The notes under the pieces: generated by a model
What the model saw: only the letters and a program-made list of their open reading frames with translations
What the model was told of the DNA's origin: nothing
The model's database searches: none
Source: an uncultured Clostridia bacterium
GTDB taxonomy: Bacteria > Bacillota > Clostridia > TANB77 > UBA1234
Length of the DNA stretch: 64,000 bases
Assembly: GCA_944393265.1 (NCBI GenBank)
Contig: CALXZO010000009.1
Span: forward strand, 1,103-65,102
Direction of reading: 5' to 3'
Translations under genes and position numbers: made by a program
Shown here: positions 801 to 50,659 of the stretch, piece by piece
How the letters are laid out: every line of letters begins with the position of its first letter
Position numbering within the stretch: the stretch's first letter is position 1

Positions 801-849
801 CTAAATTTGCAAATAAGGAATCAACGAATAAAATAACATGGAAGGTGAG

Positions 850-3075
850 TTCATGAAATTAGAAATATCAAATCAAGAAATGGCCAAATATATGAGTATG
901 ATATTTAATTCAGATGCATTAAAAGAGTTGTATAAAAGATTTCCGTTAAATGCAGATGATTTATTTTGCAATCTAGGAAATGTTCTAGGAAAGTATTATA
1001 TTTCAACGGGCGATAATTCTATGGAAAGTGCTGAAAAAATTATTTCAGAGTATGTTGCGCATGAACCCAAAACTTTTTTAAGGCAGAGTTTTATGCCAAT
1101 GGTAGAAGCTAGTGTGGCAAAGGAATTAGGACTAAACCAGCCACTGTCAATAAAAGACAGAATAAGAATTGTTGAGCATGTTAGAGAAAGAAATTCTAAA
1201 AATAAGTTTTATACACATTGTTTCCCTGAGGCTATATATGATGATGTTTCAACAAATGGATTAGATATATCAAAAGAGCTGTTTCAAGAAGAATTTAGTG
1301 TACTTAGTAAAATATCAAAAACACCATTTATGACAGGGAAGCTTAATTACTGTGAATTATCAGCCGGGGCATTAGGATATGCAACGCTTGGGATACCAGA
1401 AAGAGTTCGACTAACACTTGTAAAAAAAAGCAAGCAAAATAAAGGCGAACCGATGAAAGATTTTCTTGAAAGAGCTCTTAGAGAACAAGCAGACGAAGAA
1501 ATTATAAATGGAAAAATAACTGAAGATGACCGAGAAAGTATTTTACAAGCTGGCCAAAAAATAATTGATTTTTATTTGAGACCTAATTCATGTGTTGCAT
1601 TTTTTAAGAAAGAAGACATATACGCAGATAACTCAAGAGATACACAAAAAAATGATGATAGAATTAAATCCCTATTTATTGGAAAGTTAGGGACTTTTAA
1701 TAATATTTCTTGGGGAAGGTATGTTTCAAGCATAGCCGAAGAAAGCATATCTAAAATAAAAAAGAATCCGGATATGTTTGAAAAAGTGTACGCTGAATTT
1801 TTTGAGCGAATAAAAACAGAAATTCCAAGTTTAGAAGAATATTTTGATGACTTTATCGAGGATACTTTTGCTGAAATTTTGTCTCGAGGAGCCATTAGTA
1901 ATTATGAATATTCGGGAAATGTTGATGGCTATTGTATGGAGAATGGGAAATTATCGCGTGGACATTTTGAAATCGCCACATTCACAACACCTAGAGAAGT
2001 TGCTATAGAGGGAATAAGAGAAAATGAAGGAAAAGAAACTTTGGGTAATTCTAGAGTAAAAGGAAAAAAAGAAGATTATACAAAAGAAATTGGGAATGTT
2101 AAAAAAGTTACGAGTTTTTTTGATAAAGTTATTGCAAGCAAAAGTAAAATTGAAAGAATAGAGCAGCATAATATTAGTTATCGAGATGCGAACGGAAGAA
2201 GCAAAAGTGTTTACATATTTTTAGTAACAGATGATTCAGGTGCTATAAGGCAAATAGAGCATCCTTGGACTAACCAGTTACAAGACGGCAAACAAGTTTT
2301 TATGCTAAATAGGGGGCCTTTGAAACAAAGATTAGTTTCTAGTATCGAACTTGAAATCGAAGATTATTCGTCGGAAGATAGAAAAAAAATAGTGGAAGAA
2401 TATAAAAATAGTGTTGAGGAATATGATGAAGATTATGTGGAAGATGATGCTATCTCATGGAAAGCAAATCAAATTTATGAACAAATGAGCGAAGAAGAAA
2501 GGAATATGCTTATTGCCAAACAAGACAGATTTATGATTTCTTATCTGCGTGACTGTCAAAAGATAGAAATCATTTCGGGAAGTAAAATAGTGCCAAGTAC
2601 AGATGATGTAGAAGTGTTATATAGTGAGGCAGAAGATGCTAAATATAATATTTTGTTTGAAGCAATAAGAGACAAAGATAAACCGCTAATAAATCCATAT
2701 GACACGCTTATGGATACAAGATATTACAAGCAAGAGATAGAAACAAGAAAGAAGCTAACGCCACAAAGCATTGAAGCGTTTTCACAAGCTGTGAGAAAAG
2801 TGAATTCTTTGTATCAAGAGGTAATAGGTACAGAAATGTTTCAAGAGTTGCAAGAAGGGAAAGAAATATCTGAAATAAAAGCAAGACCGAGCAAGAAGGT
2901 AGCAAATATGATTGAAGCAATGCCGAAGATGTTAGATGTTCTGAGACTGATTGCAAAATCTGAGCACCGTTCGGGATGCAATCGAATGTCATACCTAGAT
3001 GCGGCAGTGTTTGTATGTGAGCAAACCCAAATATACTTTAATAAGAACAAACGGACAAAGTATAGAAAGAAATGA
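850..3075 (+). CDS. hypothetical protein, ~741 aa, no family recognised
   Basis: long uninterrupted ORF; ATG at 850 has a GGAAGGTGAG RBS 6 nt upstream (ORF track starts 838); bracketed by palindromic repeat copies at 719-800 and 3091-3185. Confidence 0.55.
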   Translation, partial: FMKLEISNQEMAKYMSMIFNSDALKELYKRFPLNADDLFCNLGNVLGKYYISTGDNSMESAEKIISEYVAHEPKTFLRQSFMPMVEASVAKELGLNQPLSIKDRIRIVEHVRERNSKNKFYTHCFPEAIYDDVSTNGLDISKELFQEEFSVLSKISKTPFMTGKLNYCELSAGALGYATLGIPERVRLTLVKKSKQNKGEPMKDFLERALREQADEEIINGKITEDDRESILQAGQKIIDFYLRPNSCVAFFKKEDIYADNSRDTQKNDDRIKSLFIGKLGTFNNISWGRYVSSIAEESISKIKKNPDMFEKVYAEFFERIKTEIPSLEEYFDDFIEDTFAEILSRGAISNYEYSGNVDGYCMENGKLSRGHFEIATFTTPREVAIEGIRENEGKETLGNSRVKGKKEDYTKEIGNVKKVTSFFDKVIASKSKIERIEQHNISYRDANGRSKSVYIFLVTDDSGAIRQIEHPWTNQLQDGKQVFMLNRGPLKQRLVSSIELEIEDYSSEDRKKIVEEYKNSVEEYDEDYVEDDAISWKANQIYEQMSEEERNMLIAKQDRFMISYLRDCQKIEIISGSKIVPSTDDVEVLYSEAEDAKYNILFEAIRDKDKPLINPYDTLMDTRYYKQEIETRKKLTPQSIEAFSQAVRKVNSLYQEVIGTEMFQELQEGKEISEIKARPSKKVANMIEAMPKMLDVLRLIAKSEHRSGCNRMSYLDAAVFVCEQTQIYFNKNKRTKYRKK

Positions 3076-40785: not shown

Positions 40786-42537
40786 AATGAATACAGAACA
40801 CATTATTGCAATGAATTAAGAATCAGTGATGTTGGCAAGGAGGTGCGCCTAGCTGGATGGTTACAAACAGTGAGAGATTTGGGATCCGTAATATTTATTG
40901 ATTTGAGGGACCATTTTGGAATTACACAACTTGTTATTACCGATGATGAAGAGAATATGAAGATAATTAGAAGTTTAAGCACAGAAAGTACAGTTTCTAT
41001 AACAGGAAAAGTGCGTGAAAGGTCGAACAAAAATCCTAACATACCTACTGGAGAAATTGAGATTATACCTTCTAAAATTCGTGTTTGTGGAAAAGCTAAA
41101 AATGTATTGCCATTTGAAATTAATATAGGGCAAGATGTAAGGGAAGATTTAAGATTAGAGTACAGATATTTAGATTTAAGAAATGAAAAAATACATAATA
41201 ATATTGTGCTTAGAGCTAAGATTATGAAAACAATCAGAGAGATAATGGATGATATGGGATTCATTGAAATCCAAACACCTATTTTGACAAGCTCTTCGCC
41301 TGAAGGGGCAAGAGATTTTATCGTGCCAAGTAGGCTACATCCAGGAGAATTTTATGCTTTGCCACAAGCACCGCAACAGTATAAGCAATTAATTATGATG
41401 TCAGGATTTGATAAATATTATCAAATTGCACCATGCTTTAGAGATGAAGATCCGAGAGCAGATAGATCTCCGGGTGAGTTTTATCAACTTGACCTAGAAA
41501 TGTCATTTGCAACTCAAGAAGATGTTTTCAAAGTAGTTGAAAATGTTGTACTTAATACCTTTAGAAGGCATACAACATGGAAGGTTAGTGATGATAATTT
41601 AATAAGAATTCCATATAGAGAAGCAATGAAAAAGTATGGTAGTGACAAACCAGACTTAAGAAATCCACTAGTATTAAATGATCTTACAGACATGTTTGTA
41701 AATACGACATTTAAAGCTTTTGCTGAGAAAAAAGTAATTGCTATTGTAGTACCAAGTGCGGGAAATGAAACAAGAAAATTCTTTGATAGTATGACAGAGT
41801 ATGCAGTTAACGAGTGTGAAGCCAAAGGACTAGCTTACGTAAAGATAAGTGAAAGCGGAGAATTATCAGGAGGAATTTCAAAGTTCTTTAATGATGAAAT
41901 GACAAAAGAATTATTAGAGAAATATGCTAAGCCTAACGATGCTGTATTTTTTGTAGCTGATGAAAATGAAGAAAAGGCACAAAAGCTTGCGGGACTAATT
42001 AGAAATGAGACGGCTAAGCGTTTAGACTTGTTAGAGAAAAACGTATATAAGTTTTGCTGGATAGTTGATTTCCCTATGTACGAAAAAGATGACGAAGGTA
42101 AAATTGAATTCAATCATAATCCGTTTTCTATGCCGCAAGGAGGTCTAGAAAGTTTGAATACAAAAGACCCACTTGAAATATATGCATATCAATACGATCT
42201 TGTTTGTAACGGATATGAGCTTGCATCGGGAGCCGTAAGAAATCATGATATAGAGATAATGGAAAGAGCATTTGAAATAGCAGGATATACAAGAGAACAT
42301 GTTGAGTCAAAATTTCCAGCACTATTTAATGCATTTCAATACGGAGCACCACCACATGCAGGTGCGGCACCCGGACTAGATAGAATGATAATGTTACTTG
42401 CGCAGGAGGAGAGCATAAGAGAAGTTATTGCATTCCCTAAGAACAGCAAGGCAAGAGACTTATTAATGGGAGCACCATCTACAGTATATGAATATCAGCT
42501 AAAAGATGTGCACATAAAATTAGATGTCAATGAGTGA
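40786..42537 (+). CDS. aspS: aspartate--tRNA ligase
   Basis: class II aaRS motifs (FRDEDPRADRSPGEFYQLD, GAPPHAGAAPGLDRMIMLL), N-terminal OB anticodon-binding domain; ~584 aa from the ATG at 40786. Confidence 0.9.
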   Translation, partial: NEYRTHYCNELRISDVGKEVRLAGWLQTVRDLGSVIFIDLRDHFGITQLVITDDEENMKIIRSLSTESTVSITGKVRERSNKNPNIPTGEIEIIPSKIRVCGKAKNVLPFEINIGQDVREDLRLEYRYLDLRNEKIHNNIVLRAKIMKTIREIMDDMGFIEIQTPILTSSSPEGARDFIVPSRLHPGEFYALPQAPQQYKQLIMMSGFDKYYQIAPCFRDEDPRADRSPGEFYQLDLEMSFATQEDVFKVVENVVLNTFRRHTTWKVSDDNLIRIPYREAMKKYGSDKPDLRNPLVLNDLTDMFVNTTFKAFAEKKVIAIVVPSAGNETRKFFDSMTEYAVNECEAKGLAYVKISESGELSGGISKFFNDEMTKELLEKYAKPNDAVFFVADENEEKAQKLAGLIRNETAKRLDLLEKNVYKFCWIVDFPMYEKDDEGKIEFNHNPFSMPQGGLESLNTKDPLEIYAYQYDLVCNGYELASGAVRNHDIEIMERAFEIAGYTREHVESKFPALFNAFQYGAPPHAGAAPGLDRMIMLLAQEESIREVIAFPKNSKARDLLMGAPSTVYEYQLKDVHIKLDVNE

Positions 42538-44533: not shown

Positions 44534-44689
44534 TATGTAATAAAAACGATGCAGGGCTTCTTGATGTAACTTGGAGATAACTCATTCCTTGTTGTGTCAA
44601 GAAGTTCTGTTTTTTTGTGTTAGGTTTGTTGTATATTTTCTGTATTTTTTGGAAATGATTATGGTATAAATTTTTGTGTGGAGGTTTTT

Positions 44690-44998
44690 ATGATTACGGA
44701 TATTGGGAAAAAAATTATTTCTATTAAAGACATTCCTTCTAATATAATTGAAGAGGCAATTTTTATCTTAAAATCTGATGTAAATAATGTGAAAAATGAG
44801 AAGATACGTGATAAGCAAAAAGAGATTGTAAGAGCAGAAGCAGAAGATTTTGTTAAGGATTATGTTATAAAAATTCAAGAAGATACTGAAGCTAAGAAGC
44901 AAGAAAAGTATTTAAAAAATGTGAAAATAAAAGCAATGCTAATAAGCATAATTGCTGTTATTTCTTGCTTAATTATTGGAAAAATTTTTATGTTATAA
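44690..44998 (+). CDS. hypothetical protein with C-terminal TM anchor
   Basis: ORF with GGAGG-like RBS (tggagg) before the ATG at 44690; charged coiled region plus a C-terminal hydrophobic tail. Confidence 0.35.
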   Translation: MITDIGKKIISIKDIPSNIIEEAIFILKSDVNNVKNEKIRDKQKEIVRAEAEDFVKDYVIKIQEDTEAKKQEKYLKNVKIKAMLISIIAVISCLIIGKIFML

Positions 44999-45114: not shown

Positions 45115-45963
45115 ATGGAGATGATGATTGATCGAACTAGTTATAGAAGAAGTAACGTAAAGTGTCAAGAACCCGTAAAGCCAGCAAAAAGTAGAATTAA
45201 GGTTTTGATTTTAAATCAAATAATAATATCTATGGCTATTATAATAAGTGTTTTAATAATTAAGCTTTGCAATTTTGAAACGTCGTATAATTGGCTAGTT
45301 GAGGAGATAAATAATGGTATTCCATACAAAGTGCTATATGAGCTAACGAATACAAAAATAAATGAGATAAAATTATTTTTTGACGGTGAAGTATCGAGAA
45401 AAAATGATGTTGATGAAGCTGAAAATCAAGGAGAAGTTGTATCACCATCTGGTGAGGAAATGACAAATTTAAATAGCACGGAACTAAGTGGAGACGATAT
45501 ATCTCTTAATGTTATACCAAAATATGAAACTGCAGTTGAGGGGATTAATCAAATGGTAGACGATGCAAATTATATTAAAAATAATTATAGTATACAAACG
45601 CCTCTTAATGGAACGATAACATCAATTTTTGGAGCACGAACTAGTGATAATCCTATAGTTAGCTCATACCATACAGGACTAGATATTGCTGCAAAAACAG
45701 GCACTACCATAGTTGCGGCACATGATGGTGAGGTTATAGAAGCTAGTACTATTAGCGGATATGGCAAGTGCGTCATGATAAAGCAAGGAGAACTGTTAAC
45801 AGTTTATGCGCATTGTTCTAGCCTTAATGTGAAAAAAGGTGAAGTAGTGAAGAAAGGAAGTAAGATAGGAGAGGTAGGGATGACAGGAAATGCCACGGGA
45901 CCACATTTGCATTTTGAAGTGCGATATAACGGACGTTTTGTTAATCCTGAAGATATTATTTGA
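45115..45963 (+). CDS. membrane-anchored M23/LytM-domain protein, SpoIVFA-like
   Basis: N-terminal TM, C-terminal M23 domain (YHTGLDIAA ... GYGKCVMIKQG ... TGPHLHFEV); translationally coupled to an M50 site-2 protease gene as in spoIVFA-spoIVFB. Confidence 0.5.
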   Translation: MEMMIDRTSYRRSNVKCQEPVKPAKSRIKVLILNQIIISMAIIISVLIIKLCNFETSYNWLVEEINNGIPYKVLYELTNTKINEIKLFFDGEVSRKNDVDEAENQGEVVSPSGEEMTNLNSTELSGDDISLNVIPKYETAVEGINQMVDDANYIKNNYSIQTPLNGTITSIFGARTSDNPIVSSYHTGLDIAAKTGTTIVAAHDGEVIEASTISGYGKCVMIKQGELLTVYAHCSSLNVKKGEVVKKGSKIGEVGMTGNATGPHLHFEVRYNGRFVNPEDII

Positions 45964-46550
45964 TGGCTATAAAAGTACACATATATTTATTTTTGGTGAT
46001 GGCGTACATGTTTGCAACTGGCAAATTAAAATTTTTTATATGTTATTATATGTTTATTTTAATGCACGAAATTTCACATGTTATAGTAGCATTAGCGTTA
46101 AAGGAAGATGTAAAAGAAATAACTTTATTGCCTGTTGGTATCTATGCCTCGTTGCCTAAGAAAATAACAAATAAAAAAGAGCTAATAATTAGTCTAGCAG
46201 GGCCGCTTGCTAGCTTTTTATTTGCAAATTTATTAAATAATGAAACGTTTATTATGATGAATTTATTTATTTGCATTTTTAATTTAATTCCTATTTATCC
46301 GTTAGATGGCGGAAGAATATTGCGATGTATTCTTATGTTTTTTACAAGCTACTCTACAACTAAAAAAATTACATTTGCAATTTCTAAATTTTTTGTAATT
46401 ACATTACTTTTAATATCAATCATTTCTGCAGCGTATTTTAAAAATTATTATATGGCAATTTTGTCGATTTATATTTTTTATATTGCAAAAGATGAAATAA
46501 AAAAAGATAAATATTACGGGATAATTAACTATTTACAAATTCAGAAATAA
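45963..46550 (+). CDS. M50-family site-2 metalloprotease, SpoIVFB-like but short (no CBS domain)
   Basis: HEISHVIVA (HExxH) in a TM helix and the NLIPIYPLDGGRIL LDG motif; 196 aa; start overlaps the upstream stop (TTGATG). Confidence 0.6.
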   Translation: MAIKVHIYLFLVMAYMFATGKLKFFICYYMFILMHEISHVIVALALKEDVKEITLLPVGIYASLPKKITNKKELIISLAGPLASFLFANLLNNETFIMMNLFICIFNLIPIYPLDGGRILRCILMFFTSYSTTKKITFAISKFFVITLLLISIISAAYFKNYYMAILSIYIFYIAKDEIKKDKYYGIINYLQIQK

Positions 46551-46579
46551 ATATTAAACTAGTTATGAGGTGGAGGGTT

Positions 46580-49500
46580 ATGATAACAAAAGAGAAAGGT
46601 TACTCCCTTAATGTATTAGTAATCACTATTGCAGTAATGATTATTTTAACAACAACTGCGGTTTTAACAATGAGAAGTATGACTGCAGATAAAGAAATTA
46701 CTAATTTTATGAGTGATTTGCAAGAGACGGAGGAATTTGTAAAAGAATATTATTTAAGGAAAGAAACTTTACCGGTAGTTCTTGAGGGCAATCGACCAAG
46801 GGAGATTACAATTCCCGAAGACATGCAATCTCAAGTGGGAGAAAATGATGCTGGTGGATATTATGAAATTGATCTTGCTAAGCTAGATGGAATTAGCTTG
46901 TATGATTATGATAGATTATATTTATTGAACGAAGAATCTCTTAAAGTTTATGTTATGAATCCAGTAAAATACAATAACGTAGATTATTACACTTTAACTG
47001 ATGAACTTTTAGGAATAGAAAAAATTTATGGTATTGCAGCTCCTTTTGAAATAGTAGTTGCTGGTAATCCAGTTACATGGGTATCAGGTGCAAAACTTTT
47101 AGTTTCTATTCCAGATCATGAAGATATTGGACCATTATGGTCATTTAAGTATTATAAAGGTGGACCTATTACAGCAGAACAGTTTAAGACGATGGGAACT
47201 TTTTTTGAATATGGTGAAACCATTAATGTGACGGAGAATGATACATATAGCATATATGTAGAAGATGAAAATGGATATTCAAAAGTCAGAAATATTGTTG
47301 TAGAAAAAATAGATGAAAGAAATCCTTATGTATATGTCACTAATACGGGAGGAATAGTTGTTGGTGATGACGAGACTGGTATAAATGAAATAAGGTACAA
47401 AATCATTGATTATAGCATAGGGGAAAATGAACGTGCAACTGATGTTGAAACTTATTTTCAAGGAACACCGGATCATATACCAGATGGATTAGATGATGAT
47501 ACTTGGAGTTGGACATGCGAGGAAGCGTATACAGGAGAAAGGGTTGACGGCGTAGTTCCTAGCAAGGGAAGAGATGTTAATTCGTATAAGGCAGATTATC
47601 AAGAATATTTGGAAAGATATGCTGAAATTTCGACTGATCCGTCAGGAGATGTGTCAGTTTTAGATGATGAATTTCCACAATTTCAGCACGATGGTGTGCC
47701 ATATTCTGATAGCGAAGAAAATATTGTACTTTATGTAGAAGATTATGCGGGAAACAGAAGTGTAACAGATAGAAATCTTACTTTATGCAAAGTGTCAAGA
47801 GAAATGTTGTTGGCTAACAACCTTGTAGATATGATTGTTGTGCCACTGGGTGGAGTGAGACTTACAATTAATGATGGAGCACGCTATACAAAAAGTAGAA
47901 CAGTAGACCTTTTAATAAATTCTATGGGTGCAGAATCGATGTATATAACGACAGATGCTAGTGATGTGCCATCTGATGGAGACTGGCAACCGTTTAATGC
48001 AATTGTTAATTCATATGAGCTCCCAGATGTTAATGGAGAGGTTACAGTATATGTATATGTGACAGCAAATCAGTATGTAGATGGAAGCTTAAAGTATGAG
48101 GTAACATCAGCGCAAATTTATTTGGATACTGTAAAACCTACTAACACAGCGCCGACTGTGCAACCAGTGGAAAGTAACCTACTCCTTACAATAGAATCAA
48201 ATCAAATAGATAATGAAAGTGGAATTGAACAAATAATATATGGCTATAAATTGGTAGATGAAGTAGAATATATTTGGTCTGACACAGGAACAAATATTGA
48301 AGTAAGGCAAGGAAGCACGTATAACATAAAAACTCGTGCAGTAGATAAAGCGGGAAATGTGCAAGATTCAGAGGTAATTGAAATACAAACTCCAATACAA
48401 GAAAAACAGATAATACCAAATGAACCAGCTATGGCAACTGGTATGACAGCCATAGTTTGGGATGGGACTTTAGCGCAACCGGGAAATGAAATTGAAATTG
48501 ATTCTATAACTTGGAAAGACGAGAATGGAAATTCATATGTATGGTATGATTACAATTCTGGTGACGGAATAACAGACACGCGCAATAGTATTTGGGCAAA
48601 TGCTAAGACTGCTGGTGGAAGCTATTTTGTGTGGATACCTAGATTTGCATATAAAATAACATATTTTGAGGATGCAAATAAGACTACAATTAAAGGATAT
48701 CATAAAAATTCGATTTCAAAAGGCATTGAATATTTTGAAAGTGATGGAACGACTGTTGCTACAAACCCAGATGATGTACGAACAAAATATGTAACGATAG
48801 ATATATTATTTTTAAATGGAACTTCTAATACACAATATAAGGAAAAAAATCTTGTAACGAATGTAGTAAATATAAAAACGCTTCCGGAAGAGTATATAGT
48901 ACATCCTGCTTTCCAAAGAGTTGAGACAAGCTCGATTAATAATTCACTTGGAAAATGGGGAACGGAGCTTACTGGTATTTGGGTGGCAAAGTTTGAGGCT
49001 AGTAGGAGTGACGCGACTTTTGCGGAAGGAGGAACTTCAGACAGTATAATGGTTGTTCCTAATGTAAAGAGCTGTACAGAAATTTCTATTAGTGATGCTT
49101 ATGACTACTGTAGCGATATGAATATAGCTTTATCTTCGCATTTGATGAAGAGTAGCGAGTGGGGTGCCGTAGCGTATCTTACACACAGTGCATATGGAAG
49201 AAATGGAAATGAAGTATCAAGTAATAGATATGAAGGATATGTTACTGGTGGTGGAGGTACTACTAGCAGCTATACATGCACGGAGAGCACGTTTGAAAAT
49301 ACGTATGCTTTTGATGCAAATGACACGAATAATGGAAAGGCTGGTATGTATGCAAGCACTACAGGAAACATATATGGAATATTTGATATGGCAGGTGGTA
49401 CTGCAGAATATGTGGCTACGTATCTAAATAATTCTGATTCTAATATCAGAACGAACGGGCAAAGTTTAACACAAACTATATCGACATATTTCAGGGAAGT

Positions 49501-49780
49501 ATATTCAGTTGCATCGACTGATGCTCCAATAAATAATTATAGGAAAAATGGAGCTGATGATGGTATATACGGAAATGCTATATATGAAACATCAACAGGA
49601 TATTTAGGAGCATATGGAATTAATTCAGATATAACTAATTATCCGAGTGAAAGTACGCCTTTCTTTGTGAGAGGGGGTGCAGTATCTGATGGAACGGGAA
49701 CAGGAATATTTGCATTTGACGATTCAAATGGAGAAGGAGATATTTCAAATGGATTCCGACCAGTACTTGCCTTTAGATAA
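46580..49780 (+). CDS. giant (~1066 aa) surface protein: prepilin-like N-terminal TM segment, Ig-like repeats, C-terminal FGE-sulfatase (SUMF1-like) domain
   Basis: GAGGTGGAGGG RBS before the ATG at 46580; N-terminal KGYSLNVLVITIAVMIIL resembles a class-III/pseudopilin signal lacking Glu5; D.AGN motifs (YAGNRSV, DKAGNVQD); C-terminal WGAVAYLTHSAYGRNG ... GIFDMAGGTAEYV matches the FGE-sulfatase pattern. Confidence 0.6.
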   Translation: MITKEKGYSLNVLVITIAVMIILTTTAVLTMRSMTADKEITNFMSDLQETEEFVKEYYLRKETLPVVLEGNRPREITIPEDMQSQVGENDAGGYYEIDLAKLDGISLYDYDRLYLLNEESLKVYVMNPVKYNNVDYYTLTDELLGIEKIYGIAAPFEIVVAGNPVTWVSGAKLLVSIPDHEDIGPLWSFKYYKGGPITAEQFKTMGTFFEYGETINVTENDTYSIYVEDENGYSKVRNIVVEKIDERNPYVYVTNTGGIVVGDDETGINEIRYKIIDYSIGENERATDVETYFQGTPDHIPDGLDDDTWSWTCEEAYTGERVDGVVPSKGRDVNSYKADYQEYLERYAEISTDPSGDVSVLDDEFPQFQHDGVPYSDSEENIVLYVEDYAGNRSVTDRNLTLCKVSREMLLANNLVDMIVVPLGGVRLTINDGARYTKSRTVDLLINSMGAESMYITTDASDVPSDGDWQPFNAIVNSYELPDVNGEVTVYVYVTANQYVDGSLKYEVTSAQIYLDTVKPTNTAPTVQPVESNLLLTIESNQIDNESGIEQIIYGYKLVDEVEYIWSDTGTNIEVRQGSTYNIKTRAVDKAGNVQDSEVIEIQTPIQEKQIIPNEPAMATGMTAIVWDGTLAQPGNEIEIDSITWKDENGNSYVWYDYNSGDGITDTRNSIWANAKTAGGSYFVWIPRFAYKITYFEDANKTTIKGYHKNSISKGIEYFESDGTTVATNPDDVRTKYVTIDILFLNGTSNTQYKEKNLVTNVVNIKTLPEEYIVHPAFQRVETSSINNSLGKWGTELTGIWVAKFEASRSDATFAEGGTSDSIMVVPNVKSCTEISISDAYDYCSDMNIALSSHLMKSSEWGAVAYLTHSAYGRNGNEVSSNRYEGYVTGGGGTTSSYTCTESTFENTYAFDANDTNNGKAGMYASTTGNIYGIFDMAGGTAEYVATYLNNSDSNIRTNGQSLTQTISTYFREVYSVASTDAPINNYRKNGADDGIYGNAIYETSTGYLGAYGINSDITNYPSESTPFFVRGGAVSDGTGTGIFAFDDSNGEGDISNGFRPVLAFR

Positions 49781-49876
49781 ATTGTTGTATATTAAGTGTA
49801 ATCTTACTAAAAAAGGATGTGATGGTTTACAACTAAAAAATGAAAATCTAAAATTAAAAAGAAAAGGAGGAAAAAA

Positions 49877-50494
49877 ATGCACATAAAAAACAAAATAATA
49901 ATTGGTACACTTATCATGATGACATTTTGCACATGCGTTATGGCTGTGACATTTACGGATCTTTTAGAAGAACATTGGGCGTATCAATATGTAACTACTT
50001 TATCGGATAATAATATAATTAATGGTTATCCGGATGGAACGTATAAGCCAGAAGGCACTATATCTAGAGCAGAATTTTTAAAATTGGTAATAGCAGCGTC
50101 TATGCCAAAAGAGGTAGATATATCAGAAGTGCCACCTGCATTAGAGCACTGGGCTGGACAATATTTATTTGTAGCACAAACTTATGGTATCGTTGACGCC
50201 GGTAGCATGGATTTGACAAATATTGATGAGCCAATAACAAGAATGGAGATGGCCTTGATTATATCAAAAACGGATGTAATGCTTAGAAATAAAAAAATAA
50301 ATAGTAATACAAATGTTACATTTAATGATTATGATACAATGAATTCTGAAGAGATAAAGTGGTTAACTCATGCTGTTGGAATGAATTATATAAACGGTTA
50401 TCCGGACAACACTTTTAAACCGGATGGAAATATGACAAGAGCTGAAGCGGCTGCTGTAATCTATAGATATCAAGGAATAGAAGTAAGCCAATAA
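49877..50494 (+). CDS. SLH-domain protein (two S-layer homology repeats)
   Basis: signal peptide, then FTDLLEEHWAYQYVTTL ... INGYPDGTYKPEGTISRAEFLKLV and a second INGYPDNTFKPDGNMTRAEAAAVIYRY SLH repeat. Confidence 0.75.
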   Translation: MHIKNKIIIGTLIMMTFCTCVMAVTFTDLLEEHWAYQYVTTLSDNNIINGYPDGTYKPEGTISRAEFLKLVIAASMPKEVDISEVPPALEHWAGQYLFVAQTYGIVDAGSMDLTNIDEPITRMEMALIISKTDVMLRNKKINSNTNVTFNDYDTMNSEEIKWLTHAVGMNYINGYPDNTFKPDGNMTRAEAAAVIYRYQGIEVSQ

Positions 50495-50659
50495 GACTAA
50501 AAAGTATTACATTTAAATTATTTGAAATTTCCTTTGAATATGTGAAAAATAATATAACAGGTGTATGAAAATTAATGTTGCAAATTAACAAGCACTTTTG
50601 AAGTATTAGAGAACGCAAAATTTAAAAAGGAATATAATAGATTAAAGGAGGGGAAAAGA

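Follow-up and report, generated by a model that had tools for sequence, protein, structure and literature searches.

Modular type IV pilins such as PilB and PilC of Streptococcus sanguinis consist of a pilin module onto which ligand-binding non-pilus domains have been grafted, the graft of PilC being a lectin (PMC8179133). Other subunits, namely the "K" subunits and S. sanguinis PilA, which serve as tip or initiator subunits, carry class III signals that lack the glutamate at position +5 (Glu5) and are invisible to prediction tools; their proposed place is the filament tip, where no subunit above them needs charge neutralisation (PMC9934059). [quoted passage not shown] Here we describe a gene in a 64,000-nucleotide (nt) stretch of DNA from an uncultured gut Clostridia bacterium (contig CALXZO010000009.1) that brings together traits of all three.

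We refer to the whole 64-kb stretch as the window. It is chromosomal DNA of a low-GC (~32%) Firmicute, and the feature under study is the open reading frame (ORF) at 46580-49780 on the + strand. We favour, with a probability of roughly 0.55, the view that this ORF encodes a modular pilin-like surface protein, in which a Glu5-less class III-type module is followed by a stalk and by a lectin-fold head that would bind an external ligand. A three-part design, with a pilin-like N-terminus, a β-rich stalk and a lectin-fold binding head, is the layout towards which the evidence leans. The protein would represent an uncharacterised variant of the modular pilin-like adhesins, and its cleavage as a prepilin, its entry into a filament and its function as an adhesin are predicted from sequence.

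The pilin-like N-terminal module

The ORF is open from 46565 to 49780, and the ATG at 46580 (MITKEKGYS...) is likely the real start of a protein of 1066 amino acids (aa), because a purine-rich, Shine-Dalgarno-like sequence, GAGGTGGAGGG, precedes it at 46568-46578 (+ strand) and because homologues start at the same place: in 50 of 50 complete homologues the start lies exactly six residues ahead of a conserved Gly. The N-terminal string MITKEKGYSLNVLVITIAVMIILTTTAV is found in the translated ORF. With 52 homologues and 26 species-level genomes that carry the gene, a chance feature is ruled out, and the ORF of about 1066 aa, which had been proposed in an earlier note made from the nucleotide sequence alone, is confirmed. 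A hydropathy scan of the whole protein reveals one hydrophobic segment, at approximately aa 8-33, and the bulk of the protein is therefore predicted to be extracytoplasmic.

The protein opens with a putative class III-type leader (MITKEKG; 46580-46600, + strand) composed of six residues and a Gly at position -1. The leader is short and positively charged, and it comprises six residues in all complete orthologues. Gly7, after which cleavage is predicted on the basis of its conservation and of the register of pilins in the PDB, is nearly invariant among homologues and invariant in two wider alignments, termed A5 and A6. The leader is followed by a hydrophobic helix, YSLNVLVITIAVMIILTTTAVLTMRS (46601-46678, + strand), which is supported by hydropathy, conservation and an AlphaFold helix at residues 10-61, corresponds to the α1-N segment of pilins and has Val at +5. 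Even at ~30% overall identity, homologues hardly deviate from the motif M-x5-G-[YF]-S-L-x-[VI]-L-[VI]-I-[TA]-I, and across the wider family the start [KRNQ]-G-[IVY]-[ST]-L-x-x-L-[VI]-I-T-I is kept among proteins that are 25-30% identical, its Gly being invariant. This family-wide start agrees with the consensus of class III (prepilin) signals at five of its six positions. A motif scan of the window in all six frames found no pilin-like start other than that of the gene itself.

Leader and helix belong to a pilin-like module at aa 1-150 (46580-47029, + strand), which consists of an α1 helix and a small β-sheet and is delineated by AlphaFold, by relatives found with a hidden Markov model (HMM), by alignment A6 and by profile matches to the PDB. 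The HMM of aa 1-160 recovers 1,646 cluster representatives at E ≤ 1e-3, of which 368 also pass E ≤ 1e-10. Many of these relatives comprise no more than 140-160 aa, and the whole of each aligns with the first ~145 aa of the protein; a stand-alone, pilin-sized form of the ~145-aa module occurs in hundreds of clusters. When compared with the PDB, the narrow profile (aa 1-160) finds domain 1 of Geopilin as its best match (E = 9.7e-5); the wider profile, built from A6, matches Geopilin (4.7e-8), GspG of the type II secretion system (2.6e-4) and S. sanguinis PilE1 (2.2e-3), as well as, more weakly, MshA (9e-3) and Neisseria PilE (about 0.02-0.03). Pilins account for 13 of the 18 top PDB matches of the A6 profile. 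All PDB pilin matches are in register, query residue 8 being paired with mature residue 1, and the A6 alignments with pilins reach the amphipathic second half of the helix (α1-C), beyond its transmembrane part. In the AlphaFold model of the N-terminus (pLDDT 79), a helix of 52 residues (10-61) is followed by five short β strands. Compared with family models, 25 of 46 relatives gave weak matches to TIGR01710 (GspG), six to N_methyl and one to TIGR02532, and the source records of two relatives give the names [quoted passage not shown] and "pseudopilin PulG", respectively. On sequence grounds, the N-terminal module is homologous to pilins and not merely pilin-shaped. The pilin-like N-terminus described in the earlier note is thus borne out by family profiles that match solved type IV pilins and pseudopilins in register, and its observation that Glu is missing at +5 was correct as well.

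The latter observation is one of several that weigh against the favoured reading. Position +5 is Val in the protein and A, V, S or T in its relatives, and Glu5, the hallmark of type IV pilins, is missing in nearly the whole family, P0084 being the sole relative with Glu. The protein has no match at E ≤ 0.01 to PF07963, TIGR02532 or any pilin model, and a search of NCBIfam, including TIGR02532, at E ≤ 10 did not recover this signature either; the only hit at that threshold was to PRK10506 (0.18). Some weak matches of the relatives are to generic bitopic membrane proteins, for example FliL and TolQ, and part of the signal is therefore transmembrane-helix composition. A Foldseek search with the N-terminal model ranked Clostridioides difficile PilA1 at the top, yet with non-significant values (E 0.4-1.2, TM 0.2-0.3). 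The AlphaFold model of the C-terminal part is poor (pLDDT 57). Genes for pilus machinery are missing from the vicinity, too. A Pfam scan of all window ORFs of at least 120 aa found no Peptidase_A24, T2SSE or T2SSF, in agreement with the earlier note, which had seen neither a prepilin peptidase nor a pilus ATPase in the window; phmmer searches with the Peptidase_A24 and T2SSF proteins of loci L035 and L036, whose targets included window ORFs of at least 50 aa, were also null. The same three families are absent from the 26 orthologous loci, each with up to 10 kb of flank per side, and no pilus genes were found beside the sampled paralogues. In favour of the pilin reading, P0084 (EKGVTLLELTITI, GVTLLE; L035/L036, 10001-14583), the only family member seen with the canonical Glu5, lies 2 kb upstream of a Peptidase_A24 gene and, in L036, also ~9 kb from a T2SSF gene. 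Next to P0084 are encoded further proteins with pilin-like starts, which bear LRR_5 repeats.

A cleavable Sec signal of the signal peptidase I type was considered as well and is judged unlikely, because the hydrophobic core spans ~22-25 residues and no A-x-A site follows it. If the protein is a modular pilin-like surface protein, its single N-terminal hydrophobic helix should insert N-in/C-out, as follows from the sequence, and a prepilin peptidase encoded elsewhere in the genome would cut after Gly7. The mature hydrophobic helix would then either keep the protein membrane-anchored or allow its entry into a type IV filament or pseudopilus. Since Glu5 is missing, the protein would likely take the tip or first-subunit position in a filament, in the manner of GspK-type subunits and S. 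sanguinis PilA. From there, the stalk would carry the lectin-fold head through the wall, where, to judge from its fold family, the head may bind a glycan or protein ligand.

Stalk, probable lectin-fold head and their distribution

The stalk (aa 151-611; 47030-48412, + strand) appears to comprise about four β-rich modules, as suggested by weak matches of the Ig/Fn3 type and by the positions of two motifs. The D.AGN motifs, which the earlier note had assigned to Ig-like modules, are present as DYAGN at aa 388-392 (47741-47755) and DKAGN at aa 589-593 (48344-48358); the Ig-like nature of the modules fared less well, since all stalk matches are below threshold (Big_3_2, E = 0.02; an OmpL47-type barrel, E = 1.4e-4 and under its cut-off; chitinase A1 FnIII, E = 0.055). 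"Ig-like stalk" may tentatively be used as a label for aa ~151-611.

The head comprises the C-terminal 455 aa (612-1066; 48413-49777, + strand) and ends in ...GFRPVLAFR. Pfam, a PDB profile search and Foldseek suggest that it is TaqVP-like, with a β-rich N-terminal part and an FGE-subtype C-type-lectin domain. The Pfam family FGE-sulfatase (PF03781) matches aa 833-954 (49076-49441) with 24.8 bits for the full protein and 26.4 bits for a C-terminal fragment, compared to a gathering cut-off of 23.3; of the 255 positions of the Pfam profile, only 94-198 are matched. A profile built from aa 612-1066 has one significant relative in the PDB, TaqVP (5VF4; E = 9.7e-5). The same structure ranks first in a Foldseek search with the low-confidence C-terminal model (E = 0.04, probability 0.63, 418 columns, TM ~0.3); the poor quality of the model accounts for the low TM-score and renders the fold search only suggestive. 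The FGE-sulfatase-type domain claimed in the earlier note is therefore real in terms of family membership, and the two strings quoted for it are found at aa 859-867 (SEWGAVAYL) and aa 933-945 (GIFDMAGGTAEYV).

FGE catalysis requires a pair of Cys residues. The 455-aa module has no conserved Cys: an alignment of 19 homologues contains neither an invariant nor a majority Cys column, and the three Cys of the protein itself are unconserved. Accordingly, the catalytic pair is absent, and of the "lectin/enzyme" domain proposed earlier the lectin or adhesin role is the more plausible one, while the enzyme role is not upheld. From the fold family we infer that the head, with its likely FGE-subtype C-type-lectin fold, serves as a binding module and is not an FGE enzyme. 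A surface-tethered formylglycine-generating or other SUMF1/EgtB-type enzyme would explain why the Pfam match exceeds its gathering cut-off; given the partial extent of that match, the lack of a conserved Cys and the fact that the closest solved relative, TaqVP, is a binding protein, we consider such an enzyme highly improbable and reject the head as an FGE. The kinship with TaqVP in turn raises the question of a DGR variable protein or a prophage receptor-binding protein, and the last ~100 residues of the head are indeed somewhat less conserved than its core (0.51-0.57 vs ~0.75). However, a blastn comparison of 48401-49790 with the window revealed no second copy of the 3' coding region that could be a template repeat, and no reverse transcriptase was found among the scanned window ORFs, which is why the head is rejected as a DGR target. 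A phage or plasmid origin is rejected, too: tblastn with the head module found no match among 50,697 records of phages and 72,556 of plasmids, and the chromosomal synteny around the gene is stable across 26 species. A DGR variable protein or a prophage receptor-binding protein is scarcely credible.

All 52 homologues of the 1066-aa protein stem from metagenomes or metagenome-assembled genomes labelled Clostridia or Eubacteriales, and the 26 species-level genomes with the gene trace to the gut of roe deer, sheep, rabbit and human (Hadza). The gene content of the window would suit an endospore former: it includes Spo0A, rpsL-rpsG-fusA-tuf, aspS behind a T-box leader, and ftsEX together with a PcsB-like gene.

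The earlier note regarded the combination of a pilin-like start with an FGE-type head as uncommon, and this assessment has to be abandoned. A census of modular pilins lists the pair IPR012902-IPR005532 (N-terminal methylation motif and sulfatase-modifying-factor domain) in eight proteins (PMC8179133 Dataset S1), and homologues that cover the 455-aa head module whole form at least 4,879 protein clusters. The best 120 of these clusters cover the whole module at 32-51% identity. Among the 119 best that were analysed, 59 have a start of the G-I-T-L-I-A-L-V-I-T-I type, 51 of these 59 with Ala at +5, and many of the others are calls that lack their N-terminus or have variant starts, for example KGSVTLIVLV. 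Hence, the combination is common in gut Firmicutes, not rare. The motif string ITLIALVITI did not occur in the literature searched. In shorter proteins of the family (~470-650 aa), the pilin part often consists of helix and linker only; these proteins are encoded at ordinary chromosomal sites without pilus genes nearby, some as tandem triplets. One locus (L055, 7886-12809) harbours three tandem paralogues of 526, 532 and 529 aa, each with a GITLIALVITI start and a lectin head, upstream of hrcA-grpE-dnaK-dnaJ, an arrangement reminiscent of a multi-copy array of surface proteins.

As a kind of protein, the modular pilin-like adhesin equipped with a lectin module is already known. New are a very large, uncharacterised Glu5-less subclass that has been overlooked by signature-based pilin searches, the use of a TaqVP-like head as a chromosomal, non-diversified module, and the conserved linkage that ties one family member to an intramembrane metalloprotease and to a wall hydrolase. 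Should the proposed reading hold, the N_methyl signature and PilFind-type detectors overlook a very large group of surface proteins of gut Firmicutes; PilFind has been reported to miss a comparable Glu5-less signal (PMC9934059). Thousands of candidate adhesins would be added to the gut microbiome, the "modular pilin" idea would be widened to a Glu5-less class, and a pilin-type start would be seen joined to a lectin-fold head of the sort that phages and DGRs use for receptor binding.

Neighbouring peptidase genes and competing explanations

A pair of M23 and M50 genes lies upstream of the gene and is linked to it closely and in many loci, which the earlier note did not mention. The block starts with a gene for a 106-aa protein (p106; 44678-44998, + strand), which has a C-terminal transmembrane segment, no Pfam or NCBIfam match and a positional homologue in most orthologous and distant loci. 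It continues with a membrane-anchored M23 (LytM-type) peptidase (45115-45963, + strand; Pfam Peptidase_M23, E = 5.9e-34; NCBIfam peptidoglycan endopeptidases), in which the HxxxD and HxH motifs are present, and with an M50 site-2-protease core of 196 aa (45960-46550, + strand; Pfam Peptidase_M50, E = 9e-17), which features the motifs HEISH and NLIPIYPLDGG and has no CBS domain. Among PDB sequences, the M50 core matches the site-2 protease of Methanocaldococcus jannaschii (mjS2P; 1.2e-16) and B. subtilis SpoIVFB (2e-12). The M50 gene overlaps the M23 gene by 4 nt and stops 29 nt short of the ATG at 46580, and the window contains no terminator-like site between the M50 gene and the pilin-like gene. 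The latter is probably co-transcribed with the M23 and M50 genes.

Nearly all orthologous loci with upstream sequence (L001-L030 range) contain the same block of a ~100-aa transmembrane protein, M23, M50 and the pilin-like protein, the exceptions being L009, which lacks the whole block, as well as L012 and L013, which lack M23. The gap between the M50 gene and the pilin-like gene measures 14-69 nt across loci. The block recurs in the distant loci L045 and L047-L053, which were fetched only through their similarity to relatives of 145-260 aa, and a reduced form, M23 followed by the pilin-like gene and rpsF, is found in L034, L038, L039 and L041. Other paralogues with the same N-terminal motif are unlinked to M50. 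The outer flanks of the block vary by lineage, with a UDP-sugar pyrophosphorylase (UDPGP) or SpoIID upstream and rplU-rpmA-obg, rpsF-ssb-rpsR or SLH proteins downstream. In L001 and L003, rplU-rpmA-obg lie ~1-2.5 kb downstream of the pilin-like gene, with one or two genes in between.

Two further explanations place the protein outside a filament. It is possible, if doubtful, that the pilin-derived N-terminus is an uncleaved signal-anchor, by which stalk and lectin are simply tethered to the cytoplasmic membrane. The family-wide loss of Glu5 would fit such a tether, as would the lack of pilus genes near the ~50 loci examined, except for L035 and L036 beside the Glu5-bearing P0084, and the housekeeping neighbourhoods of family members, such as hrcA-dnaK, ftsEX or rpsF. 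Moreover, many family members amount to a helix, a linker and a head, and a stalk of ~450 aa could well cross a Gram-positive wall. Yet, an ordinary anchor needs no invariant Gly and [IVY]-[ST]-L, fixed after a short basic leader at ~25% identity; the 145-aa module also exists as a stand-alone, pilin-sized protein, and the pilin homology extends past the membrane part into α1-C. The other explanation, which we deem unlikely, regards the protein as a partner or substrate of the adjacent M50 site-2 protease, in which its conserved N-terminal helix would dock or by which it would be cut, with M23 as the third member of a SpoIVFA/SpoIVFB-like complex that controls release or activity, possibly in sporulation. 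The compact block, shared by the window and almost every orthologous locus with upstream sequence, recurs in distant loci within flanks that differ between lineages, and the M50 protein resembles SpoIVFB and mjS2P. The organism has Spo0A, and in relatives the gene is followed by rplU-rpmA-obg, the genes that also follow spoIVFB in Bacillus. Furthermore, substrates and inhibitors of site-2 proteases are N-in transmembrane segments, and the transmembrane segment of BofA sits in the SpoIVFB cleft (PMC9042235). On the other hand, many paralogues with the same N-terminal motif adjoin no M50 gene, M23 or even the whole block is missing from the three exceptional loci, and cleavage would free no signalling domain, as the cytoplasmic leader has only six residues. 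No link between site-2 proteases and prepilins was found in the literature searched, and synteny by itself is no proof of interaction.

A related proposal links the peptidases to the pilin-like start itself. The minimal M50 protease and M23 might be dedicated partners of the Glu5-less pilin-like family, such that M50, as a metalloprotease analogue of a prepilin peptidase, acts at the cytoplasmic face to cut or dock the conserved G-[YIV]-[ST]-L helix, and M23 opens the wall. We consider this quite unlikely; if true, however, it would amount to a previously undescribed route by which pilin-like surface proteins of gut Firmicutes are matured or released. The M23/M50 pairing of one family member offers a testable lead on maturation or display.

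Downstream of the pilin-like gene, where relatives have rplU-rpmA-obg, the window instead encodes an SLH-domain protein (49877-50494) and a Cys-rich, secreted protein of 380 aa with many CxxC pairs (50660-51802). A 1693-aa ORF (51717-56798) with a weak match to DUF5704 overlaps the Cys-rich gene by 86 nt in another frame and is followed by three genes on the minus strand. The region 49877-60192 could represent either an island of surface-protein genes that was inserted or a giant gene broken by a frameshift. SLH proteins are also encoded downstream of the pilin-like gene in L006 and L026, and the SLH-domain protein shares the window with a CsaB-like polysaccharide pyruvyl transferase (20842-21933), which suggests that surface proteins in this clade are anchored in a wall-polymer-dependent manner.

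Part of a conjugative element or a type IV secretion remnant may occupy 60894-63848 at the end of the window, as suggested by a TraG/VirD4/HerA-like coupling ATPase (60894-62585) together with a TrbL-like membrane protein (62949-63848). Within the stretch of lowest GC content (0.24 at 30-32 kb), two adjacent ORFs encode, respectively, a radical SAM domain (30606-31100) and a SPASM domain (31124-31702); the pair may be a split or frameshifted maturase gene, possibly with a small peptide gene nearby. A 745-aa ORF at 838-3075 has no Pfam match at E ≤ 0.001. Ordinary features are the T-box leader (40522-40719) that precedes aspS (40732-42537) and a tRNA-Gly(TCC) gene (29469-29542) that stands alone.

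Relation to described systems

The upstream pair of the block belongs to the same two families, M23/LytM and M50, as the products of spoIVFA-spoIVFB of B. subtilis, and the genes occur in the same order. In contrast to the spoIVF operon, the M50 protein is here reduced to a core without a CBS domain and is not matched by the NCBIfam SpoIVFB model, the M23 protein keeps its catalytic motifs, and a third, pilin-like gene is attached, which is undescribed for spoIVF. TaqVP is the best match to the C-terminal 455 aa by both sequence profile and fold, at an identity of ~15% and with a low-confidence model on the side of the protein described here. The latter is not accompanied by a DGR, whereas TaqVP has neither a signal sequence nor a pilin module.

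GspK/PilX-type "K" subunits and S. sanguinis PilA share with the protein a degenerate class III signal without Glu5 that escapes prediction tools (PMC9934059), a likeness that concerns the type of signal and not overall sequence similarity. Their genes are found together with those for minor pilins and pilus machinery, whereas here the neighbours are M23 and M50 peptidases. Modular type IV pilins provide the closest parallel in overall design, as the protein likewise unites a pilin-like module with non-pilus domains, the elements by which modular pilins are defined, although it does not carry the formal signature IPR012902 (PMC8179133). It differs from PilB and PilC in that its signal lacks Glu5 and is recognised by none of IPR012902, PF07963 and TIGR02532, and in that it is about twice as long, possesses an additional stalk and is encoded outside any pilus operon.

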